Below are positions 4,652 to 39,595 of a stretch of 39,595 bases of DNA, piece by piece (position 1 is the first letter of the stretch; every line of letters starts with the position of its first letter). A model generated the notes under the pieces. It was given only the letters and a program-made list of their open reading frames with translations. It searched no databases and was not told the DNA's origin. The position numbers and the translations under genes were made by a program. The stretch comes from a virus (Duplodnaviria; Heunggongvirae; Uroviricota; Caudoviricetes). Location: the IMG/VR virus record IMGVR_UViG_2541047944_000005, positions 1-39,595 of that record; one strand, given 5' to 3'.

Positions 4652-4855
4652 ATGAACAACAAGACATGGTTTCGCGCATACATGTGGGCGCTGGTATGCG
4701 TCCTCATTTCTCTCATCCTGTATGCAGGACTACTCCCCCGAATGATTTCATCTGACAGTTCCTTCCTGGTATTGCTGGGCATTTTCATTGCCCTGCTGTA
4801 CCCGGCAGGCGTTGTTCGCTTTTTCAGTAAATACATTGAGGAAATCAAACCATGA
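4652..4855 (+). CDS. small two-helix membrane protein (67 aa), partner of the SPFH gene
   Basis: MNNKTWFRAYMWALVCVLISLILYAGLL...LVLLGIFIALLYPAGVV has two hydrophobic segments; stop overlaps the ATG of the SPFH gene. Confidence 0.5.
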   Translation: MNNKTWFRAYMWALVCVLISLILYAGLLPRMISSDSSFLVLLGIFIALLYPAGVVRFFSKYIEEIKP

Positions 4856-5676
4856 AAAAACTCTTTCCGGTTATCCCGCTTTTTGCCGCCATCTTCCTGG
4901 TTGGTTGCGATCGCGTTGAGCCAGGTAATGTGGGCATCAAAGTCAACAAACTGGGCGACGACAAAGGCGTCGGCGAAGTGGTTGGCGTTGGCCGCTACTG
5001 GACTGGCTGGAATACCGAGGTTTACATCTTCCCGACCTTCAAACAAATGAAGACCTACGATGAGCCGTTCAGCTTCCAGATGAGTGACGGCACAACCATC
5101 GGCTATCACATCGGTGTGGCCTACAAGGTTGATCCATCCAAAGTTACTACAGTGTTTCAGACCTACCGCAAAGGCGTGGATGACATTACCGACACTGACC
5201 TGCGCCAGAAGATCGCCGATGCACTCAACCGACTGGCCAGCAAAATGACCACCGACAAATTTATCGACGGAGGGAAATCTGAACTACTGGATGCAGCTCT
5301 TAAAGACATTCAGGAGGAAATGACACCCATCGGTATTCAGGTAATGAGCCTCTCATATGTGGGTAAGCCGGAGTACCCGTCAACCGTTATCGACAGCATT
5401 AATGCCAAAGTCACGGCAAACCAGAAAACCCTGCAACGCGAACAGGAAGTCAAGCAACGTGAAGCAGAAGCCAACATGTTGCGCGCAGAAGCTGCCGGAC
5501 AGGCTGATGCCATTCGCACAAAAGCCCAGGCTGAAGCCGACGCCATTCGTTTACGCGGTGAAGCTCTGCGCCAGAATCCCGGCGTTATGGAGCTGGAAGC
5601 AATCAACAAATGGAACGGCACGCTGCCGCAATACATGACCAGCAACACCGCTGTTCCGTTTGTTCCGGTGAAGTAA
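4852..5676 (+). CDS. SPFH/band-7 (stomatin-prohibitin-flotillin-HflK/C) family lipoprotein
   Basis: 274 aa; signal peptide with lipobox LVGC near the N-terminus; SPFH-like core followed by Ala/Glu/Arg-rich coiled-coil tail (QREQEVKQREAEANMLRAEAAGQADAIR...). Confidence 0.7.
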   Translation: MKKLFPVIPLFAAIFLVGCDRVEPGNVGIKVNKLGDDKGVGEVVGVGRYWTGWNTEVYIFPTFKQMKTYDEPFSFQMSDGTTIGYHIGVAYKVDPSKVTTVFQTYRKGVDDITDTDLRQKIADALNRLASKMTTDKFIDGGKSELLDAALKDIQEEMTPIGIQVMSLSYVGKPEYPSTVIDSINAKVTANQKTLQREQEVKQREAEANMLRAEAAGQADAIRTKAQAEADAIRLRGEALRQNPGVMELEAINKWNGTLPQYMTSNTAVPFVPVK

Positions 5677-9618: not shown

Positions 9619-10578
9619 ATGAAAATTTGTATCGACGACGGCTCCACCAACATCAAGCTGGCATGGACTGAGAACGGCGAACGCCGCAACGCCATCAGCC
9701 CGAACAGCTTCAAGTCGGAATGGTCTGCGCCGTTCGGTGGCACGCAGCCCGCGAACTACATGCTTGATGGCGTGCGCTATGGTTTTGATCCGGTCAGCGA
9801 TCGCTTTGTCCAGACGACCGACACGCAATACCAGTACAGCGATGTGAATGTAATCGCCATTCACCACGCGCTGGTCAAATCAGGCATCACACCACAGGAA
9901 GTGGATGTGGTTGTCACCCTGCCACTGAGCGAATATTTCGACACAAACGCACAGCCGGACATGGCCAACATCAACCGCAAAAAAGCGAACGTCATGCGCC
10001 CGGTGGAGTACCAGAACGGCGAAGCATTCACTATCCGTAACGTACGGGTTATGCCTGAATCCATTCCGGCTGGCTTTAAGGCACTGGCTGACATGAGTCC
10101 GTTTGAATCCCTGCTGATTGTGGATTTAGGCGGAACCACACTGGATGTGGCAAAGGTTCAGGGGCAACTGGCAGGTATCAGCCAGGTGTTTTGCGATCCA
10201 CACGTAGGCGTTTCCCTGATGGCCGATGCCGTACTGTCGGTGATGGCCACTAACGGTATGCGTACCAGTCACCACATCGCCAATACCATTATCGAACATC
10301 GCCATGATGAAGCCTGGTTGCGCCAGCACATCCACAATGACGCGCATTACGCCAGCCTGATGGCGGTTATTCGTGAAAAGGAAGAAACACTGAAACAACG
10401 CGTGATCCGCGCGCTGGCGGGTTTTTCGGGTTACGGGCGGGTGATGGTTGTCGGTGGCGGGGCGGAGATTGTGGCACCCGCTATCCGCGAAGCCTGCGGA
10501 GTTAATGCGACTTTCATCGCGGACGGGGTGCCACAGTTTGCTCTGGTTAATGGGCTGTACGCAATGGACAAGGAGTAA
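9619..10578 (+). CDS. parM: ParM/StbA-like actin-family segregation ATPase
   Basis: 319 aa; N-terminus MKICIDDGSTNIKLAW...SPNSF...YSDVNVIAIHHAL...MPESIPAG...LLIVDLGGTTLDV...MVVGGGAEI matches plasmid R1 ParM motif by motif as recalled; AAGGA RBS. Confidence 0.85.
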   Translation: MKICIDDGSTNIKLAWTENGERRNAISPNSFKSEWSAPFGGTQPANYMLDGVRYGFDPVSDRFVQTTDTQYQYSDVNVIAIHHALVKSGITPQEVDVVVTLPLSEYFDTNAQPDMANINRKKANVMRPVEYQNGEAFTIRNVRVMPESIPAGFKALADMSPFESLLIVDLGGTTLDVAKVQGQLAGISQVFCDPHVGVSLMADAVLSVMATNGMRTSHHIANTIIEHRHDEAWLRQHIHNDAHYASLMAVIREKEETLKQRVIRALAGFSGYGRVMVVGGGAEIVAPAIREACGVNATFIADGVPQFALVNGLYAMDKE

Positions 10579-11459: not shown

Positions 11460-11867
11460 TTAAATATAATCTTCTTCGTAGTCGCTGATTAATTCATTGC
11501 CATAATCAGACAGCAATTTCAAAGCAAAGGTAACTTCCTCAAGGGTAGCTATCCCCATTGCTGAAAACACCGTTAATTTAACCAGCAGCAGGGAGTTTGA
11601 AAGTTCGGAAGAGTTCATCATTAAAAATATTGATGCAGCCTGAAAAGCTGTGCGTTTATTCCCATCATGAAAGGCATGAGCCTTGGCTATACCAATCAAA
11701 TACATAGCAGCCAGAGCATGAATATCATCAACCCCTTCATAGTAGTGTAGTGTCCTGACGCGATTTAAAGCACCTTCAAGTAGCCCGTCATTGGCATTTC
11801 CGCTCTGGGGTAAAGTTTCAGCATGGATACGTTCTACTTGTTCTTTTGACAAAAACACTATGTCCAT
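11460..11867 (-). CDS. doc: Doc (death-on-curing) Fic-family toxin
   Basis: 135 aa; Fic motif HAFHDGNKRTA; start overlaps stop of the upstream antitoxin gene; AT-rich. Confidence 0.85.
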   Translation of the reverse strand: MDIVFLSKEQVERIHAETLPQSGNANDGLLEGALNRVRTLHYYEGVDDIHALAAMYLIGIAKAHAFHDGNKRTAFQAASIFLMMNSSELSNSLLLVKLTVFSAMGIATLEEVTFALKLLSDYGNELISDYEEDYI

Positions 11868-12223
11868 CAGTTATCCTCAAGCTTTTTAATGATATCCGCA
11901 TGTTTTTCTCTTGTACGCTTCATTGCATCTTCAAAAGACAATCCTTTTTTTCTCTGTGCGACAAGAGCTGGATGACGTTTTTCCAGATCTCTCACTGCAT
12001 TTATTAAGAGTGGTTGCTTCATTTTGTTTATTTGATCCCGCAGTTTTTTGGTTTTGCCAAGGACAGCCCGTATTTCAGGACTAAGATCAGAACCAGCAAG
12101 AACAACATCCTTCCCTCCCTGCGCCGTGATAACGACACTGCCACCGGAAGAAAGGTAATCCAGAATTTCACTCAGGTTCTCACGAAATTCATCATCAGTT
12201 ACAGTTTTCATATTCATTTCCAT
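11867..12223 (-). CDS. phd: Phd/YefM-family antitoxin
   Basis: 118 aa; N-terminal region EFRENLSEILDYLSSGGSVVITAQGGKDVVL resembles Phd/YefM; start may be the third ATG (12211). Longer than P1 Phd. Confidence 0.65.
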   Translation of the reverse strand: MEMNMKTVTDDEFRENLSEILDYLSSGGSVVITAQGGKDVVLAGSDLSPEIRAVLGKTKKLRDQINKMKQPLLINAVRDLEKRHPALVAQRKKGLSFEDAMKRTREKHADIIKKLEDN

Positions 12224-13362: not shown

Positions 13363-18120
<4,758 letters not shown>

Positions 18121-24760: not shown

Positions 24761-25107
24761 CAACCCGCTACACAGGAATGAACCCGGACGGGACGGGAAA
24801 CCTGAACGATATGGAGCACCTGAAACAGTCAGTCAGGGACATCCTGACCACCCCGCTGGCAAGCCGGGTTATGCGACGGGAATATGGCAGCCTTGTGCCC
24901 GATTTAATTGACGAACCCATGAATAACACCACACGTCTGCAATGCATGAGTGCTGCCGTGATTGCGCTGACACGATGGGAACCCCGCATTGCCCTGGATG
25001 CCATCGACGTTGTCTGGAAGGCAGGAGGCCGCGCCAGGGTGACGCTGTCGGGCACTGTCATGCAGACCATGCAGAATGTTGAATTAACCATCACGCTGAG
25101 GGAGTAA
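24757..25107 (+). CDS. W: baseplate wedge protein, P2 gpW family
   Basis: 116 aa; GTG start overlapping V stop, AGGAGG RBS 6 nt upstream. Confidence 0.8.
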   Translation: MTTRYTGMNPDGTGNLNDMEHLKQSVRDILTTPLASRVMRREYGSLVPDLIDEPMNNTTRLQCMSAAVIALTRWEPRIALDAIDVVWKAGGRARVTLSGTVMQTMQNVELTITLRE

Positions 25108-25110
25108 ATC

Positions 25111-26007
25111 ATGCCCGCCGTTGACCTTTCCCAGTTACCGGAACCCGCCATCATCGCGGAGCCTGACTTTGAAGCAATTCTGGCTGACACAAAGGCCATG
25201 ATGATTGCGGCTTATCCCGCCGAACAGCGTGAAGCCGTTTCCGCCGCGCTGGAGCTGGAATCGGAACCCCTTAACGTTATCGCTCAAACCATGTCGTTTC
25301 GTGAAATGCTGTTACGCCAGCGGGTTAACGAGGGCGCACGCGCCTGCATGTTAAGCCACGGTTCAGGGACAAACCTGGACAACCTCGCGGGCAATATGAA
25401 CACAAAGCGCCTGGTTATCACTCCGGCAACGGATACCACCGACGCGGTGATGGAGAGCGACACCTCGCTGAGATTGCGGGCGCAACGGGCGTATGACGGC
25501 CTGAGTGTTGCTGGCCCGTCAGGTGCATACGAGTATTTTGCACGCAGCGCCAGCGGTCTGGTGCGTGATGCGCGGGCCATCAGCCCGTCTCCGGCCTGTG
25601 TGACGGTTTCCATCCTGTCCACTGAAGGCGACGGCACAGCAACGGAGGCGTTGCTTAATACCGTTCGCGCTGTTCTGAATGCAGAGGATACCCGCCCGGT
25701 GGCCGACCGCCTGACCGTACAGAGCGCCAGAATCGTGACATGGCGGCTGAATGCAAAACTGTACTTTTACCCCGGCCCGGAATCCGAACCTATTCTGGCC
25801 GCGGCTGAATCGTCGTTCAGGAAGTGGCTGGCTGAGCAGGGGCTTATCGGTCAGGACGTGGCGTTGTCCGCCATTGCTGCCGCACTGCATGTGCACGGTG
25901 TGCAACGCGTGGAGATAATCGAACCCACACAGAATATGGCCATCAGCGACATACAGGCGGCGCGCTGTGAGTCATTCACCATCAGCGAAGGTGGACGCAA
26001 TGAGTAA
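25111..26007 (+). CDS. J: baseplate assembly protein, P2 gpJ family
   Basis: 298 aa; GAGGGA RBS; position and size as P2 J. Confidence 0.85.
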   Translation: MPAVDLSQLPEPAIIAEPDFEAILADTKAMMIAAYPAEQREAVSAALELESEPLNVIAQTMSFREMLLRQRVNEGARACMLSHGSGTNLDNLAGNMNTKRLVITPATDTTDAVMESDTSLRLRAQRAYDGLSVAGPSGAYEYFARSASGLVRDARAISPSPACVTVSILSTEGDGTATEALLNTVRAVLNAEDTRPVADRLTVQSARIVTWRLNAKLYFYPGPESEPILAAAESSFRKWLAEQGLIGQDVALSAIAAALHVHGVQRVEIIEPTQNMAISDIQAARCESFTISEGGRNE

Positions 26008-26608
26008 TTCGTTGTTACCACCATCAGCCAGCAATTTCATGCGTTGTGCCGAAGCCGTCGGAACACGCATTACAGACATTCCGGTAGACCTCAACACGCT
26101 GTGGTCGCCGGACACCTGCCCGGTGCATCTGCTGCCTTATCTCGCCTGGGCGTTTTCCGTTGACCGCTGGGATCGCAACTGGCCGGAAGAGACAAAACGA
26201 CAGGTGATTCGTGATGCATGGCTGATACACCGACACAAAGGGACCATCAGCGCACTGCGAAGAGCCGTGGAGCCTCTCGGCTACCTGATTGAAGTAAAGG
26301 AGTGGTGGCAACTCAACGAGGAGCCGGGAACATTTCGCATTGTTGTCGGAGTACTTGATCAGGGCATCACCGATGAAATGTATCAGGAACTTGAGCGCCT
26401 TATTGCGGATGCAAAACCAGTAAGTCGCCATCTGACGGGGCTGGCGATCAGCCTGAGTGTGAACGGAAAGATTTTCGTTGGTACGGGATGCTATCACGGC
26501 GATGCCCTGACGGTTTATCCCTACACCCCGGAGTCCATTATTGTCGAAGGGGATTATTTCCCTGCCCCAGCCATTCATTTAATTGATAATCTGAGAGTAA
26601 ACGCATGA
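26000..26608 (+). CDS. I: baseplate/tail protein, P2 gpI family
   Basis: 202 aa from ATG 26000 overlapping J end in another frame. Confidence 0.75.
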   Translation: MSNSLLPPSASNFMRCAEAVGTRITDIPVDLNTLWSPDTCPVHLLPYLAWAFSVDRWDRNWPEETKRQVIRDAWLIHRHKGTISALRRAVEPLGYLIEVKEWWQLNEEPGTFRIVVGVLDQGITDEMYQELERLIADAKPVSRHLTGLAISLSVNGKIFVGTGCYHGDALTVYPYTPESIIVEGDYFPAPAIHLIDNLRVNA

Positions 26609-28203
26609 CAGTGAAATACTACGCCATTCTGACTAATCAGGGCGCGGCACGACTGGCTAACGCGACGATGCTCGGCAGTAAGCTGAATCTGACGCAAATG
26701 GCCGTTGGTGATGCAAATGGTGTGTTACCAACCCCAGACCCTGCACAAACAAAACTGATTAACCAGAAACGCATTGCACCGCTGAATCTTCTGAGTGTTG
26801 ACCCTAACAATCAGAGCCAGATTATTGCGGAGCAAATCATCCCTGAAAACGAGGGAGGATTCTGGATCCGTGAGATTGGTCTTTATGATGATGAAGGTGT
26901 ACTCATTGCGGTGGCAAACTGCCCGGAAACGTACAAACCGCAGTTGCAGGAAGGCAGTGGACGCACCCAGACTATCCGCATGATTCTGGTTGTCACGAAC
27001 ACCGAAGCCATCACGCTGAAAATCGACCCGTCTGTGGTTCTGGCAACCCGCAAATATGTGGATGATAAAATATCAGAGCACGAACAGTCACGACGTCACC
27101 AGGACGCCTCGCTGACCGTAAAAGGTTTTACTCAGTTAAGCAGTGCAATTAACAGTGAATCAGAAACACTGGCCGCAACACCGAAAGCGGTTAAGGCTGC
27201 ATATGACCTGGCTAACGAGAAATATACCGCCCAGAACGCCACCACTACACAAAAAGGGATTGTTCAGCTCAGTAGCGCCACGAACAGCACGTCTGAAACA
27301 CTGGCAGCGACACCAAAAGCTGTTAAGGCGGTAATGGATGAAACGAACAAGAAAGCACCATTAAACAGCCCGGCACTGACCGGAACGCCAACAACACCAA
27401 CAGCGCCACAGGGGACTAATAGTACCCAGATCGCAAGCACGGCTTTCGTTATGGACGCGATTGCCGCACTTGTAGATTCGTCACCTGATGCACTGAACAC
27501 GCTGAACGAACTGGCTGCGGCGCTGGGCAATGACCCGAATTTTGCGACCACCATGACTAACGCGCTTGCGGGTAAGCAACCGAAGGATGCCACCCTGACG
27601 GCGCTGGCGGAGCTTGCTACATCAGCAGATAAACTCCCATATTTTACAGGGGCAGATCGTGCCGCGTTAACCGCGTTGACAAGTGTTGGACGTGCCATTC
27701 TTGGTAAAACCAGCACTCAGGGAGTTCTTGATTACCTTGGTTTGGGGGAAGGCTCTGCACTGCCCGTTGGTGTACCTGTTCCGTGGCCGTCAGCAACACT
27801 GCCAGAGGGATGGCTGAAATGTAACGGCGCAGCATTTTCTTCTGAAATGTACCCCAAACTGGCAAAGGCTTACCCCACCAATAAATTACCGGATTTACGG
27901 GGTGAGTTTATTCGTGGCTGGGATGACGGACGAGGTATTGATGCAGGACGAGAGATACTTTCATTTCAGGAAGGCACTATCGTCTCCGGTTTTGATGATA
28001 ATGATACTGGGGATATCAGTTCACTCAGCTCAACACAATACGGATTTGGTGACACTTTAAGCTCTAATCAATGGGGGGCCATAAATGGCAAAAAGTGGAT
28101 ATTTGATGCATCCAGTAAAGGTGCACAAAAATATGACTGGTGGGCTTATGTATCAGCTCGTCCGCGTAATATTGCATTTAATTACATCGTAAGAGCGGCA
28201 TAG
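26605..28203 (+). CDS. H: tail fibre protein H with exchangeable C-terminal tip (currently cassette A)
   Basis: 532 aa; N-terminal region resembles P2 H (..LGLYDD.G.LIAVAN..E.YKP...EGSG..Q); STSETLAATPKAVKA repeats; C-terminal tail-collar-like segment GEGSALPVGVPVPWPSAT...PDLRGEFIRGWDDGRGID; ends RPRNIAFNYIVRAA. Confidence 0.85.
   Translation: MTVKYYAILTNQGAARLANATMLGSKLNLTQMAVGDANGVLPTPDPAQTKLINQKRIAPLNLLSVDPNNQSQIIAEQIIPENEGGFWIREIGLYDDEGVLIAVANCPETYKPQLQEGSGRTQTIRMILVVTNTEAITLKIDPSVVLATRKYVDDKISEHEQSRRHQDASLTVKGFTQLSSAINSESETLAATPKAVKAAYDLANEKYTAQNATTTQKGIVQLSSATNSTSETLAATPKAVKAVMDETNKKAPLNSPALTGTPTTPTAPQGTNSTQIASTAFVMDAIAALVDSSPDALNTLNELAAALGNDPNFATTMTNALAGKQPKDATLTALAELATSADKLPYFTGADRAALTALTSVGRAILGKTSTQGVLDYLGLGEGSALPVGVPVPWPSATLPEGWLKCNGAAFSSEMYPKLAKAYPTNKLPDLRGEFIRGWDDGRGIDAGREILSFQEGTIVSGFDDNDTGDISSLSSTQYGFGDTLSSNQWGAINGKKWIFDASSKGAQKYDWWAYVSARPRNIAFNYIVRAA
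27725..27750 (+). other. invertase crossover site 1 (hix/gix-like), inside H
   Basis: TTCTTGATTACC-TT-GGTTTGGGGGAA; left half matches the hixL half-site TTCTTGAAAACC as recalled; sits exactly where sequence conserved among the three cassettes begins. Confidence 0.55.
27739..27938 (+). repeat. about 200-bp conserved segment, copy A (in H)
   Basis: ggtttgggggaaggctctgcactgcccgttggtgtacc... recurs at 28211-28410 (direct) and 29621-29820 (inverted). Confidence 0.8.
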
Positions 28204-28222
28204 AAACGTTGGTTTGGGGGAA
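28197..28222 (+). other. invertase crossover site 2 (direct orientation relative to site 1)
   Basis: GGCATAGAAACG-TT-GGTTTGGGGGAA spanning the H stop codon; inner half identical to site 1. Confidence 0.45.
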
Positions 28223-28690
28223 GGCTCTGCACTGCCCGTTGGTGTACCCGTTCCGTGGCCCTCAGCCACACCGCCAGCAGGGTGGCTGAAATGTAACGGC
28301 GCAGCATTTTCTTCTGAAATGTACCCCAAACTGGCAAAAGCCTACCCCGCGAATAAATTACCGGATTTACGCGGAGAATTTATCCGTGGCTGGGATGATG
28401 GGCGAGGAATTGATGCGGCACGCGCTTTATTGAGCATTCAAAACGGGATGTTGGAAAAACACCGCCATATTGTTGTAGCTAACGATGGATATGACACAAA
28501 AGATGAATGGGAGTTGGCTACGATTTTCAAAAAAACATATACACAAGGCAGGGGGCTTGATGCCACAAATACAGGAGGGAGTTTGATTCCATCACCAACG
28601 CTTCATTCACGAGGAAGTATTGGTAACACAGGTGGTAGTGAAACCCGCCCCCGCAATATTGCATTTAACTATATCGTGAGGGCGGCTTAG
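28211..28690 (+). other. alternative tail-fibre C-terminal cassette B (no own start codon)
   Basis: Encodes GLGEGSALPVGVPVPWPSATPPAGWLKCNGAAF...RPRNIAFNYIVRAA in the H codon phase relative to the crossover centre; begins with conserved segment copy B (about 90% identical to A); distinct central 80 aa. Confidence 0.7.
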
Positions 28691-28696
28691 TTATAT

Positions 28697-29314
28697 TCAA
28701 CTGGCTGCTGCCAGAGGCATTTCCGGCCAGTTGATATCCGGTGCAGTGCTGATGTCAGTCGCATTAAGCACATCTATGAAATCAAGCACGGCGTTTAGTT
28801 TTTCCGTCTCCTGGGGCGTCAATCGGCGTCCGGCTCGTAGTTTGAGATTTATAAGCTCAACAGATGCCATTGCCTGTTCCTCAAGTTGCTGACGATGCGC
28901 TCCGGCAGCTTCCAGTTCTGCTGCGTGCTGTCGTCCCGCATCTGTCACCCAGGTCTCACCATCCCAGACATCATAGATAGTAGCTGGCTGTTTCACCGTC
29001 GTATCAGGAGGGTAATCTCCCGGTTGTGTGATTTGCACAGCGTTACCATTCTCTGTGCTGTAAACCGTTTCGCCTCTGTGGTCTGGAACATATTTCCAGA
29101 TGTTCTGGTCGGTATCACGACAGACAGCGAAGCCGGGGCGTTTTTCTGGTGGCGCGTCAATGCATGAGTGAGCCGGAATTCCAACACCATAAGCGAGATA
29201 CTCAACAGTGGCAGAGAGATATTCACGGTTTTCAGCATCGTAGTTATAAACGGTAATATCGCCTGCAGTTATAGCGATACCATTCTGATCAAGTACTGCA
29301 GCAGCATTATTCAT
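28697..29314 (-). CDS. tail fibre assembly chaperone (Tfa; Mu U / P2 G-like)
   Basis: 205 aa; C-terminus DISTAPDINWPEMP resembles the Mu U ending (NPDWPELP) as recalled; follows cassette C on the minus strand with stop/start overlap. Confidence 0.75.
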   Translation of the reverse strand: MNNAAAVLDQNGIAITAGDITVYNYDAENREYLSATVEYLAYGVGIPAHSCIDAPPEKRPGFAVCRDTDQNIWKYVPDHRGETVYSTENGNAVQITQPGDYPPDTTVKQPATIYDVWDGETWVTDAGRQHAAELEAAGAHRQQLEEQAMASVELINLKLRAGRRLTPQETEKLNAVLDFIDVLNATDISTAPDINWPEMPLAAAS

Positions 29315-29820
29315 TAAGTAGCCCTTACAATATAGTTAAACGCAATATTACGGGGGCGGTTTTCCGTTCCTGTATTCCCTCCATTGGCACCTAATCTATA
29401 AACACCACGAGTGCCAATAGCACGTAGTGAAGATGGAACTTTTACACCTGACTCATCTGTTTTAACAATCCCGCCATCACCGTATGTAGCCAGTATACCA
29501 GGGTTTGTTCCTGCACGGGCGCTATTTGCGGCAAGCCCTTCACCAGTCCATAACTCCATATAGTGAATATGATCTATAACCGAATGTGATTGTGCATTAA
29601 GCAAGGAACGCCCTGAATCAATTCCCCGCCCGTCATCCCAGCCACGAATAAACTCACCCCGTAAATCCGGTAATTTATTCGTGGGGTAAGCCTTTGCCAG
29701 TTTGGGGTACATTTCAGAAGAAAATGCTGCGCCGTTACATTTCAGCCATCCCTCTGGCAGTGTTGCTGACGGCCACGGAACAGGCACACCAACGGGCAGT
29801 GCAGAGCCTTCCCCCAAACC
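29314..29820 (-). other. alternative tail-fibre C-terminal cassette C (inverted orientation)
   Basis: Minus strand encodes GLGEGSALPVGVPVPWPSATLPEGWLKCNGAAF...RPRNIAFNYIVRAT; begins with inverted conserved segment copy C (29621-29820), nearly identical to copy A. Confidence 0.7.
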
Positions 29821-29834
29821 AACGTTTTCGTTTT
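29809..29834 (-). other. invertase crossover site 3 (inverted relative to sites 1 and 2)
   Basis: Reverse complement reads AAAACGAAAACG-TT-GGTTTGGGGGAA; lies between cassette C and the invertase gene. Confidence 0.5.
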
Positions 29835-29888
29835 TATCCCTACCTATACCAACTCTGTATTTTTCACGAAACAAAGAGGATGTTTTTT

Positions 29889-30488
29889 ATGCAAATTGGC
29901 TATATTCGTGTGTCAACAAATGACCAGAACACGGATTTACAACGCAATGCACTGAACTGCGCAGGATGTGAACTGATTTTTGAAGATAAAATCAGCGGAA
30001 CGAAATCAGCCAGACCGGGATTGAAAAAACTGCTCAGAACGCTATCAGAAGGAGATACGTTGGTTGTCTGGAAGCTGGACAGACTGGGCAGAAGTATGAA
30101 ACACCTGATCACGCTTATTGAGGAATTGCGGGAAAAAGGTGTTAATTTCCGTAGTCTGACGGACAGCATTGACACATCAACACCCATGGGGCGTTTCTTT
30201 TTTCACGTCATGGGGGCTTTAGCCGAAATGGAACGTGAATTAATTGTAGAGCGTACACTGGCCGGGCTGGCAGCAGCACGCGCACAAGGACGCATTGGCG
30301 GACGTCGCCCGAAGTTGACAAAAGAACAACACGAGCAAATAGCGAGGCTGATTAAAAACGGTCATGACAGGAAACAACTGGCGATCATTTACGACATCGG
30401 CATATCGACGATTTATCGTTATCACCCTGTAGGCGATATACAGGCTGAAGAAACAACCAGGCAGACTCAGGAAAATAAAAACCGCTAA
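29889..30488 (+). CDS. serine recombinase DNA invertase, Hin/Gin/Pin/Cin family
   Basis: 199 aa MQIGYIRVSTNDQNTDLQRNAL...TLVVWKLDRLGRS...SLTDSIDTSTPMGRFFFHVMGALAEMERELIVERTLAGLAAARAQGR near-colinear with Hin/Gin as recalled; C-terminal HTH. Upstream part of track ORF 29694-30488 is antisense to cassette C. Confidence 0.9.
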   Translation: MQIGYIRVSTNDQNTDLQRNALNCAGCELIFEDKISGTKSARPGLKKLLRTLSEGDTLVVWKLDRLGRSMKHLITLIEELREKGVNFRSLTDSIDTSTPMGRFFFHVMGALAEMERELIVERTLAGLAAARAQGRIGGRRPKLTKEQHEQIARLIKNGHDRKQLAIIYDIGISTIYRYHPVGDIQAEETTRQTQENKNR

Positions 30489-30506
30489 TCTGACCATTAG
30501 CGGTTT
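30477..30506. terminator. hairpin between convergent invertase and U genes
   Basis: aaaaccgctaat-ctgacc-attagcggtttt perfect 12-bp stem. Confidence 0.4.
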
Positions 30507-30514
30507 TGCGTTAA

Positions 30515-31009
30515 TCAAAACAGTCCTTTAACGGAGCTGGCCGCGCTGTTAAGGGATGATGTGACCTTATCTTTGAAGCCGGACAGCATATCACTGAACG
30601 ATGAGGATTGCAGGCGCTCTCGCAAATCCTCATCACAGCGTTCAAGGGTCAGTGAAAATTCTATCTTTTTCGCCTTACCGTAGCGATCAAACTCGGAGCG
30701 GGTCGTATTCGTTCCGGTCAGGACATACATGCCGTAAATCTGCCCGACACCATCAATCAGAGGCCAGGGGCGTCCTGTATATGCCTGCGTGGTCAGCAAC
30801 GAAAGCGACACTTCGCCACCTGTAATTTCAGGATAAAGCACACCAGAAAGAACGATGCGATCATCGCCTGCCCCGATATACTGCCAGCTTGCTGAACGGT
30901 TAACGCGTTCATTTTTCACATGCCGCCAGCTTTTGTTTTGCTGTAACTGCTGATGCGGCAGCGTGCGCAGCTCAAAAACAAACATGCCGTAGATCATCAT
31001 CATGGCCAT
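30515..31009 (-). CDS. U: tail protein, P2 gpU family
   Basis: 164 aa; N-terminus MF.VFEL.T.P......W.H and size match P2 U as recalled; immediately downstream of tape measure on the minus strand. Confidence 0.7.
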   Translation of the reverse strand: MAMMMIYGMFVFELRTLPHQQLQQNKSWRHVKNERVNRSASWQYIGAGDDRIVLSGVLYPEITGGEVSLSLLTTQAYTGRPWPLIDGVGQIYGMYVLTGTNTTRSEFDRYGKAKKIEFSLTLERCDEDLRERLQSSSFSDMLSGFKDKVTSSLNSAASSVKGLF

Positions 31010-31015
31010 GACTCC

Positions 31016-33832
31016 TCAATCTTTATCGTAAAAACTGCCACGCCCGGCACGGGCGCGCCGTTCCGTTTCTGCCCTGACCATTTCACCGACCAGTTTCGCC
31101 AGTTCGCGGGGATTCTGCGTAACAACGTTATGCAGATGAACATGAATTTCACCGCCAAATCCGGAGACAGCAGGCTCCCGGTTACGGGAAGCTGCAGGAA
31201 CTGATGCCACTGGCGATCGTATGGCCTCCGCCACCGAGCGGGAGCTGGCCGCAACAACAGGGACCAGCGCCGGAGGCAGCGGAGCCGGGACTACGGGTGT
31301 GATATTAATTGCGGGGGCAGGCTTACTGACCTGCGCAATCTTCCGCTCCTGCCACTCCCCACGAACAGCCAGTGCGCGGGGCAGGTTCTTAAAGACAATA
31401 TCGCCGGGGCCAATGCGTTTTTTCGTCTCATCAACCAGCTTACCTGTGTTATCAGCAATTTTGCTGAGTCTGCGTAGCGTCCCGGTATTGCTGTCTGTGA
31501 GCGGTTTGTTGTCTTTGGGTTTATCACCTCCGGTGCCATTGCCATTTTCCACAGGCTTCGGCGGATTGATTTTCGCAAGGTCCCCCTGAAGCAAGGCAAC
31601 CTTGTCCTGAAGAATGGCCGCACGCTGTGCGTCTTCGATTTTCTTGCGCGCCTTTTCCGCTTCATCCGGAAGGACGCCAAGTTTTTCAAGTATCCACGCC
31701 AGCGTATCCAGTAGCATTTTTGCAGGTGTCAGAACAAGCTGTAACGCACCGCCAAGAACGTTACCGAATATCTCGCCAGCACTGGTACATTTATCCAGCG
31801 TTTCCTTGCTGGACTCCATCGGTGACAGCAGCGATTTAAACCAGTTAAACACCTGGCTGATCCCGCTTCCGATTGCGTCAAAAACAGGACCAAACCGTTC
31901 AAAGGTTTCGCGCAACGGGGTCAGCCTTTCCATAATCCCGCTGAACACCCCGGCAAAAAATGCCCTGATGGGATCCCAGTATTTCCAGATAAGAACGGCA
32001 GCTCCGGTAAGCGCAGCCACGATAAGACCAACCGGACTGAACAGCGCCCCGATAGCGCCTCCCAGTAAAGAAACGGAACCCGTCACCATTCCCCATAGTG
32101 CTGGCAGGACCCTGACAGCATTCATTGATCCGGTCAGGAGAGAAAAACCAAGACGCAGTTTTGCCAGCGGACCAGCAAGCACACCAATAGCCAGCGACAA
32201 CGAGCCAACCGTTGCAGTCATTGCCAGCAACGCACCGCCTGCTATCAGTAGCTGGCGCGTCAGTGCCGGATGGGCCTGCGCCAGCGCCGTCACCCTTGAT
32301 ACCACCCGCGTGAGCCACTGCGTGACAGAACGCAGCGGACCGTCAATCAGATCTGCAATGCGGATGCGCAACCCTTCCCATGCACTGCCGAGTGATTTCA
32401 GATCGCCGTCAAGGTTGTTGGCCATAACCTTTGCTGTGCGTTCAGCCTCACCGCGCGCGCCTTCAAGTTCTTTTCTCAGTTTGGGTAAGGAACCGTCACC
32501 CGCTGCATCAACGAGCGCCATAAACGATGTGAAAGCCTCTTCTCCGGCAATGTCCTTAAAGAACGATACCCGGTCAACTTCCCCGTATTTGCGGGTGGCT
32601 TTATAAAGGTCGGCCAGCACATCCTCCATCGGGCGCATTTTGCCCCCGGCATCCGAGACAGACACGCCCAGCTCTTTCAGCGCCTCTGCTGCCGCCTTTG
32701 GCGGTGATGCCAGACGAGCCAGGCTGGCACGCATTGCCGTCCCGGCATCACTTCCCCTGATACCCATATTCGCCAGCACGCCCGCCATCGCTGCGGCCTG
32801 CTCCAGCGATATTCCCAGCTTGCCCGCCACCGGACCTGCATATTTCATGGTTTCGCCCAGTGCGCGAAGGTCAGTGTTGGTACGGGTAAACGCTGCGGTG
32901 AGTGTGTCACCGACCCGGTCCATCTGGTCAGCAGAAAGGCCGAACTGCGTCAGGATATTTGAGCCAATATCTGCCGTCTCGCCGAGATCCATACCGCCAG
33001 CCGTTGCCATGCTCAGCACGCCGGGAAGCGCAGCCTGAATGGCCTGCGGAGTGAAGCCAGCCATTGCAAGAAATGCCTGCCCACTGGCGGCATCGCCTGC
33101 GGTGAACTGCGTTTCAGAGCCAAGTTTTAACGCCTGCTCACGCAACGCCTTAAACTGCGGGCTGTTCTGGTCGATTCGCGTCAGTGCCTGAACGCGGGAC
33201 ATCTCTTTCCCGAACCCGATCGCAGGCTGCAAAAAACGCCCGGCAGCATAGCCGCCAGCCGCTGCCGCACCAATTGCCAGCGCACCACCTGTTTTCAGTT
33301 TTCCCGCGGTTTCCTGCGCGCGCGAATACCGCTCACGCGCCCGCGTTACACGCGCAAGCGCCTGCCGTTCGCGTTCAAGCTGGTTGTTGTACTGTTCGGT
33401 GCGTCTGATGGCCTGCTGGATGGTGTTATCGCTGCCTGTCAGGGAAATGCCGTGGCGTTTCAGCTCTCCGCCAAGCTCCCGCATTTTCTGAATTTCCCGT
33501 GTGCGCGATTCATTCAGGCGTTCAAGCCGGGTGCTTAACTGCTGCATCAGCTTTTGTTGTTTTTCGCTGAGCACTGTACCCGTGCGTTGTAACTGATTAA
33601 GGGCGTTAAGCTGGCGTCGTGCTTTCACGATGCCAGCATCCGCTTTACTGACAGCGTCACGGGCGCGCTCAAATGAACGCGCCTGACGCTCGAGATTTTT
33701 GATCGCCCCCTGCGTTCGCTGGATGGAGTCACCAAACTGCCCCATCAGGCGGCGGGCGTTTTCGGCAGGCCGGGTCAGCCTGTCAACGGCGCTGAAAGCG
33801 ACCCGGATATCAAGAGTCTTCATTATCTGCAT
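31016..33832 (-). CDS. T: tail tape measure protein, P2 gpT family
   Basis: 938 aa; long coiled-coil N-terminal third, Gly/Ala-rich hydrophobic middle, position between E/E' and U. Confidence 0.8.
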   Translation of the reverse strand: MQIMKTLDIRVAFSAVDRLTRPAENARRLMGQFGDSIQRTQGAIKNLERQARSFERARDAVSKADAGIVKARRQLNALNQLQRTGTVLSEKQQKLMQQLSTRLERLNESRTREIQKMRELGGELKRHGISLTGSDNTIQQAIRRTEQYNNQLERERQALARVTRARERYSRAQETAGKLKTGGALAIGAAAAGGYAAGRFLQPAIGFGKEMSRVQALTRIDQNSPQFKALREQALKLGSETQFTAGDAASGQAFLAMAGFTPQAIQAALPGVLSMATAGGMDLGETADIGSNILTQFGLSADQMDRVGDTLTAAFTRTNTDLRALGETMKYAGPVAGKLGISLEQAAAMAGVLANMGIRGSDAGTAMRASLARLASPPKAAAEALKELGVSVSDAGGKMRPMEDVLADLYKATRKYGEVDRVSFFKDIAGEEAFTSFMALVDAAGDGSLPKLRKELEGARGEAERTAKVMANNLDGDLKSLGSAWEGLRIRIADLIDGPLRSVTQWLTRVVSRVTALAQAHPALTRQLLIAGGALLAMTATVGSLSLAIGVLAGPLAKLRLGFSLLTGSMNAVRVLPALWGMVTGSVSLLGGAIGALFSPVGLIVAALTGAAVLIWKYWDPIRAFFAGVFSGIMERLTPLRETFERFGPVFDAIGSGISQVFNWFKSLLSPMESSKETLDKCTSAGEIFGNVLGGALQLVLTPAKMLLDTLAWILEKLGVLPDEAEKARKKIEDAQRAAILQDKVALLQGDLAKINPPKPVENGNGTGGDKPKDNKPLTDSNTGTLRRLSKIADNTGKLVDETKKRIGPGDIVFKNLPRALAVRGEWQERKIAQVSKPAPAINITPVVPAPLPPALVPVVAASSRSVAEAIRSPVASVPAASRNREPAVSGFGGEIHVHLHNVVTQNPRELAKLVGEMVRAETERRARAGRGSFYDKD

Positions 33833-38302: not shown

Positions 38303-39595
<1,293 letters not shown>

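Follow-up and report, generated by a model that had tools for sequence, protein, structure and literature searches.

The window analyzed here, a stretch of 39,595 nucleotides (nt) considered at its full length, is a P88-like (Xuanwuvirus, P2-related) prophage of E. coli, and it very probably carries a Min-type multiple DNA inversion switch for the tip of its tail fiber. The switch comprises the tail-fiber gene H, three tip cassettes (A, B and C), three crossover sites (s1, s2 and s3), a single tail-fiber assembly chaperone gene and a neighboring gene for a serine DNA invertase (Table 1). Switches of this family are known and widespread, and the present one is an ordinary, well-preserved example. 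The constant part of H ends at a polar 26-bp site, two further copies of which head the silent, promoterless tips B (in the same orientation) and C (inverted). In the mechanism that we propose, the gene immediately outside the segment encodes a Gin-family serine invertase, which would recombine sites that lie in inverted orientation. It would probably do so within an invertasome that depends on Fis and an enhancer, which would disfavor deletion between direct sites, and the resulting swap of cassettes should change the host range.

Crossover sites, tip cassettes and isomers

An earlier note on this DNA, made from the sequence alone, had described three alternative tips that share a conserved 5′ segment of about 200 bp, each preceded by a 26-bp site with a common inner half and a central TT. 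A repeat finder recovered this segment as a 217-nt sequence at 27734-27950, repeated at 28206-28422 (direct, 90% identical) and at 29609-29825 (inverted, 96% identical). Each copy was headed by one polar 26-bp site, and s1 and s2 were direct and s3 inverted, just as that note had it. The inner half and the core, TT GGTTTGGGGGAA, were identical in s1, s2 and s3; the outer halves differed, and all three sites contained the dyad AAAC(C/G) TT GGTTT around the 2-bp core. When the window was searched for the 19-nt core pattern AAACSTTGGTTTGGGGGAA with no more than two mismatches, the three sites were the 3 matches obtained, against 0.00 expected from 100 shuffles. For comparison, real gix and cix sites were drawn from the deposited Mu and P1 records, in which gix reads TTATCCAAAACC TC GGTTTACAGGAA and cixR reads TTATCCAATACC TT GGTTTAAGAGAA. 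All three window sites aligned in register with Mu gixR and P1 cix, and P1 cix has the same central TT. Site s3 aligned with Mu gixR at 67 nt before the start of the invertase gene, a spacing that is the same in Mu. An exact 17-mer site scan of 185,579 species genomes gave 95 matches, but it says little about host range because about 70 chance matches were estimated (596 Gb, both strands); only the matches in Escherichia were clearly real, and a few other enterobacterial ones may be real.

The outer half of s2 holds the stop codon of cassette A. More generally, the stop codon of a cassette occupies positions 5-7 of the next 26-bp site (e.g. GCA TAG AAACG TT GG...; window 28190-28222), an arrangement seen in all related arrays examined (loci L001-L012, L207 and L208). 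The 3′ end of one cassette thus forms the outer half-site of the next, and the last few nucleotides of each cassette are under a second constraint imposed by the overlapping site.

Table 1. Features of the tail-fiber switch region, with positions in the window
Feature	Position	Strand	Properties
H constant (shaft) part	26605..27737	+	Pfam Phage_tail_fib (E=1.6e-62), Phage_fiber_2; extends up to the crossover dinucleotide of s1
Crossover site 1 (s1)	27725..27750	+	TTCTTGATTACC TT GGTTTGGGGGAA
Tip cassette A	27738..28203	+	Fused to H now; Pfam Collar; collar N-part, 72-aa variable insert, 14-aa conserved C-terminus
Crossover site 2 (s2)	28197..28222	+	GGCATAGAAACG TT GGTTTGGGGGAA
Tip cassette B	28210..28690	+	Silent, without its own start; Pfam Collar; 77-aa variable insert
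Tail-fiber assembly chaperone	28697..29314	-	Pfam Caudo_TAP, E=9.6e-26, 90.9 bits (cut-off 22.1)
Tip cassette C	29314..29822	-	Silent; Pfam Collar; 86-aa variable insert; translationally coupled to the chaperone
Crossover site 3 (s3)	29809..29834	-	AAAACGAAAACG TT GGTTTGGGGGAA, read on the minus strand
Serine DNA invertase, 199 aa, Ser9	29889..30488	+	Pfam Resolvase (E=1.7e-51), HTH_7 (E=1.3e-12); ATG at 29889, stop ends at 30488
Segment homologous to the P1 cin recombinational enhancer	29907..29978	+	Gene positions 19-90; alignment in register
12-bp-stem hairpin	30478..30507	none	Between the convergent invertase and gpU genes

With tip A fused, H spans 26605-28203 and contains Phage_tail_fib, fiber-repeat and Collar domains, and the open reading frames (ORFs) of B and C contain a Collar domain only. 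The variable middles of the tips had been put at 80-100 residues; they measured 72, 77 and 86 amino acids (aa). The shared C-terminus, described earlier as the same last 13 codons, proved to be conserved as protein, with 13 identical residues among the last 14 (RPRNIAFNYIVRA followed by A, A or T), whereas the corresponding DNA was only 82-86% identical (repeat finder; 28159-28203 versus 28646-28690, 82%; versus 29315-29364, inverted, 82-86%). When the tips were compared with known receptor-binding domains, the N-terminal part of tip A matched the T4 gp37 tip (2xgf, E=4.9e-15, phmmer) and its last 14 residues separately matched the extreme C-terminus of gp37. A match to the short tail fiber of phage phiTE (9cuy, E=1.3e-18, phmmer) ran from end to end of tip A, the C-terminal strand included. 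In gp37, the D10 collar fold is made of residues 811-881 and 1010-1026, with D11 inserted between them (Islam et al., PMC6957217). Since D10 is split by D11 in this way and the matches lie at both ends of the tip, each cassette is predicted to be one gp37-like collar domain, in which the first 68 and the last 14 conserved residues flank a variable inserted receptor-binding part, and the conserved C-terminal residues are best read as the strand that closes the collar.

The likeness to the T4 tip and its chaperone gp38 thus extends over the cassette N-part and the last 14 residues, both of which align with gp37 D10. Tips B and C have HxH motifs like those of the iron-binding gp37 needle, and in both systems a fiber chaperone gene is adjacent. 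Unlike in T4, the inserts are far shorter (72-86 aa versus 128 aa), and the chaperone is of the lambda Tfa / P2 G type. An AlphaFold2 monomer model of tip C, built on a 24-sequence alignment, had a mean pLDDT of 50 and was too poor to confirm the fold. Homologues of tip C numbered 7562 and came mainly from E. coli, Salmonella and Klebsiella. The modular construction of the tips, with conserved collar arms, a short variable insert and a stop inside the next site, could aid the engineering of host range.

Inversion was simulated by cutting at the central dinucleotides and building all the arrangements that inversion between inverted sites can reach. With X as 27738-28209 and Y as 28210-29821, four isomers were obtained, each of which was one inversion away from two others. 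In the window state, X Y, tip A is fused (H-A, 532 aa). Isomer X Y′ also has tip A fused, and C and the chaperone then lie downstream in the same orientation. In Y′ X′, tip C is fused (H-C, 546 aa) and is followed by the chaperone, and in Y X′, tip B is fused (H-B, 537 aa). Of the two inversions, the larger covers 2084 bp and the smaller 1612 bp. The path proposed earlier, from the window state to H-C plus the chaperone and from there to H-B, was reproduced by the simulation, but the fourth isomer, X Y′, had been missed. All three fused ORFs were open and in frame, those of cassettes B and C included, and the junction always read L-G-L-G-E-G. The region has one chaperone gene, co-oriented with cassette C, as previously noted; B and the chaperone lie on one segment in opposite orientations, so that they can never be co-oriented.

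The assignment of the neighboring gene to the Hin/Gin family also held. Among structures in the PDB, its product, in which Resolvase and HTH_7 domains were found, matched Gin (4m6f, E=3.3e-91; 3uj3, about 1e-91), and gamma-delta resolvase far more weakly (E=1.8e-31). The protein begins MQIGYIRVSTNDQ, its S9 aligns with Gin, and it is 71% identical to Mu Gin and 74% identical to P1 Cin. These comparisons classify it as a serine invertase of the Gin/Hin/Cin/Min family. The R64 shufflon (Rci) is similar in that a single adhesin gene receives alternative C-termini through several inversions; it uses a tyrosine recombinase and sites unrelated to those of the window. Membership in the R64-type shufflons was ruled out, the recombinase of the window being a serine invertase.

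The P1 record annotates the recombinational enhancer at cin positions 19-90, and conservation was strong across the matching stretch of the window. Compared with Mu and P1, synonymous-site conservation was 0.45-0.50 in this stretch and 0.29-0.30 in the rest of the gene, although the counts were too small to settle the matter (10/22 versus 31/103). The stretch contains GTGTCAACAAATGAC, a G-N13-C 15-mer that presumably fits the Fis core form. The enzyme is wild type at M114 and H106 (Gin numbering), which we take to be positions where substitutions make invertases independent of Fis. Dependence on Fis and the enhancer is likely, as far as can be judged from these comparisons. In the serine invertase family, the invertasome favors inversion and disfavors deletion between direct sites, and such a bias would explain the stable direct pair s1/s2.

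Inversion in a sister prophage and competing explanations

The same three-site, four-isomer design has already been published for a sister prophage, the P2-like prophage of enteropathogenic E. coli (EPEC) E2348/69, in which three inverted repeats with partial homology were described, together with two inversions, of about 2200 and 1800 bp, that overlap each other (Goldberg et al. 2014, Genome Med, PMC4272514). In that prophage, four variants with three alternative carboxyl termini were found by PCR to co-exist (PMC4272514). Like the window, it has the gene order H-tipA, tipB, reversed chaperone, reversed tipC, invertase, gpU, as well as four isomers and three C-termini. Its flanks are 97-98% identical to those of the window (98.3% over 25000-27950), its s1 (locus L009) and s3 are identical to ours, and its invertase protein is 100% identical, the gene differing by 1 nt in 600. 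Its tips A and C, by contrast, have variable parts unrelated to those of the window, the chaperone is only 61% identical, and the outer half of s2 is AGCATGAAAACG in place of GGCATAGAAACG. Two public assemblies of E2348/69 differ by exactly the predicted inversion between site 1 and site 3: the Y′ X′ isomer built in silico from LT903847 matched CP059840.2 over 3400 bp without a single mismatch. Because the E2348/69 repeats differ at positions 12 and 50, the crossover took place within positions 13-49, an interval of 37 nt that includes the central TT. Inversion thus occurs in the sister prophage at sites identical to s1 and s3 of the window, and by analogy it would be expected in this very prophage too.

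Several points weigh against reading the window as a working switch. Its flipping is read across from a near-identical relative. The sole chaperone gene opposes late transcription in two of the four states (the window state X Y and the H-B state), and no convincing promoter for the reversed chaperone emerged from a sigma-70 scan, which gave 6 sites versus 6.0 expected, none of them well placed. The conservation of the enhancer is weak evidence, since the enhancer sits inside a conserved coding region. Finally, an IS21/IS100-family element at about 14556-16506 (istA 14639-15661, istB 15658-16440) is inserted some 46 codons short of the end of the terminase large-subunit gene, just upstream of the portal gene; the homology to P88 breaks around it at 14555/16507, with a 9-nt overlap. 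Because this IS100-like element splits the terminase gene, the prophage is probably packaging-defective, and particles may no longer be made, so that the switch may have no phenotype here.

The interrupted terminase gene is also what speaks for regarding the switch as a fossil in this copy, that is, as part of a defective prophage with no meaningful flipping and with B and C as silent relics. We consider this unlikely, because the invertase gene is intact and only 1 nt in 600 separates it from the copy active in E2348/69, none of the three sites has a flaw, and the reading frames of every cassette and of the chaperone are open. Moreover, inversion acts on prophage DNA, for which a viable phage is not needed.

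Rearrangement by RecA through homologous recombination between the 217-bp repeats, and not by the invertase, is a very improbable source of the isomers. At 90-96% identity over 217 nt, the repeats are long enough for RecA, the E2348/69 crossover can be bounded no more closely than to a 37-nt interval, and whole variable regions have clearly been exchanged between elements via the conserved arms. However, the homology starts exactly at a gix/cix-like 26-bp site beside a Gin-family invertase gene, and the bounded interval, about 17% of the repeat, includes the central dinucleotide. RecA acting on the direct pair s1/s2 would, furthermore, remove cassette A, but arrays with as many as 13 cassettes, ten of them direct, persist.

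That B and C are independent small tail proteins with their own starts, and not alternative 3′ ends of H, is scarcely credible: PGAP calls each cassette a separate coding sequence ("phage tail protein") and the ORF finder lists TTG starts, but the ORFs start at the crossover site without an ATG, B begins 6 nt past the stop of A, a shaftless collar domain would have no attachment to the baseplate, the same cassettes are fused in other assemblies, and the fusion junction is always in frame. The TTG starts were accordingly rejected, the cassettes beginning at the crossover site. For annotation, this means that the four "phage tail protein" ORFs represent one switchable gene, which pipelines miscall as separate genes or pseudogenes.

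Related arrays and the single chaperone

The novelty implied for the three-cassette arrangement did not survive comparison with the E2348/69 layout (PMC4272514) and the p15B Min family. The type goes back to the p15B Min work of around 1990 and a demonstration of the exact three-site layout to 2014, so that the window carries little weight as a discovery. The Min multiple-inversion system of p15B, on which Sandmeier, Iida and Arber worked in 1990-1992, reportedly consists of a constant 5′ part and several alternative 3′ cassettes, each with a crossover site, and an adjacent Din-family invertase gene. We linked the window to min via the P7-like plasmid pMCR_SCKP-LL83, combining a published report with our own sequence comparison. 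A segment of this plasmid was reported to be 99% identical to the p15B min region (PMC5786510). In our comparison, pMCR_SCKP-LL83 contained nine sites of the same form, one chaperone gene and an invertase 94.7% identical to that of the window; the outer half of its first site was identical to that of s1, and the shared DNA was 89% identical to the window. With its three sites (+, +, -), three cassettes and constant H part, the window module is of the p15B Min type. p15B and the P1-like plasmids differ from it in their P1-type backbone and in a far larger number of sites (the two plasmids examined had nine and twelve), whereas the window is a minimal three-site version of p15B Min on a P2-type backbone.

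Arrays with a single chaperone and between 2 and 13 cassettes were found in P2-like prophages, in chromosomal remnants of tail genes and in P1-like plasmids. The same module had four to seven cassettes in other P88-like prophages and two to seven in the chromosomal tail-gene remnants (D-V-W-J-I-H). The largest array seen (L207; NZ_CP196102.1, a 92-kb P1-like plasmid) had a fiber gene and 12 further cassettes (10 direct and 2 inverted) with one chaperone gene and one invertase gene. P2-type tail clusters (tape measure, U, X, D, V, W, J, I and a short H) that carried the switch and had no head genes in view were observed at L001, L002, L006, L007 and L210-L219. Their positions in the chromosome varied (beside yicL, yehR, hyc or yccX, or at a porin/response-regulator locus), and they could be prophage remnants or tailocin-like loci.

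The Mu G (Gin) and P1 C (Cin) systems share with the window the invertase family, the architecture of the 26-bp site, the position of the invertase gene and the enhancer-homologous segment. In contrast to the window, they switch between two states by means of two sites, and each of their tips has a chaperone dedicated to it; the window tips are collar-type and not Mu S-type. P88 and phage 520873 have this Mu-like two-state form, with a chaperone for each tip, from which we infer that the lineage of the window acquired a Min-type module by exchange. Within the window, the invertible segment (27734-29827) was 98.2% identical to that of a chromosomal element of E. coli A31, whereas its flanks followed the E2348/69 prophage. 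Near-identical arrays in other strains held the same cassettes at different places and in different orientations, and among the IMG/VR loci the chaperone was co-oriented with the invertase about as often as anti-oriented to it.

In comparison with another P88-like prophage, one exchange breakpoint fell within the first 70-145 nt of the invertase gene. Relative to the P88-like prophage L010, the gene was mosaic, with 16 of the 19 differences in its first 69 nt (window 29889-29960). It seems, then, that when modules are exchanged the beginning of the invertase gene, with the enhancer region, travels together with the cassettes. L010 itself (NZ_CM173849.1) has a hybrid two-state switch that offers either a collar tip with a Min-type chaperone or a gp53-like tip that is unrelated to it and is paired with a separate chaperone; site 1 of L010 is one base off (GGTTTGGGAGAA).

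The start of the chaperone gene overlaps the stop codon of cassette C (TAATG), so that the chaperone follows directly after the C tip. The chaperone is 100% identical to that of E. coli A31, and the exact protein was present in 7239 blocks of a public assembly index. The relation between chaperones and tips was surveyed in 44 complete arrays from E. coli and IMG/VR loci. The class of the chaperone followed the tip directly upstream in 43 of these, and the tip that lies tail-to-tail with the chaperone varied. A chaperone of the window type had a C-type tip upstream in every case (9/9 arrays), a class about 72% identical to it always accompanied one tip type (11/11), and classes about 60% identical were found with another tip type (23/24). 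The tip tail-to-tail with the chaperone was B-type in 25 of the 44 arrays, across chaperone classes about 60% identical to each other, and A-type in 6.

We tentatively propose, as a possibility that we do not favor over its opposite, that the array consists of one matched pair, tip C and the chaperone, plus two tips, A and B, whose folding either does without that chaperone or accepts a chaperone of any type. If this were true, short gp37-like collar tips would be chaperone-independent receptor-binding modules. Alternatively, the chaperone may be expressed whatever its orientation, and simple physical linkage could give the same pattern of chaperones and tips. How tips A and B fold while the single chaperone faces the wrong way is a small, testable question.

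The surrounding prophage

The backbone of the prophage was about 96-97% identical to phages 520873, 503458, P884B11 and P88. On one side it borders on an integrase gene (1-1008) and on the other on the host serS gene (38303-39595). Upstream of the tail-fiber region are the baseplate genes V, W, J and I. Beyond it, gpU and the tape-measure gene are on the minus strand and converge on the tail-fiber region. A strong hairpin stands between the chaperone of the switch region and this convergent gpU operon; it is likely to be a two-way terminator. An Rfam scan of 26000-31200 revealed no RNA family. A TGT-N12-ACA dyad, TGTATTTTTCACGAAACA, is located at 29856-29873, between s3 and the start of the invertase gene, and has the form of a P2 late-activator binding site. 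It was set aside as a P2 late promoter, because the window contained 5 such dyads versus about 10 expected and the spacing fitted neither strand. The accessory genes of the prophage encode a Fic/Doc toxin with a Phd-type antitoxin (11460-12223), a ParM-like segregation ATPase (9619-10578), which is also present in P88, and an SPFH/Band-7 protein (4852-5676).

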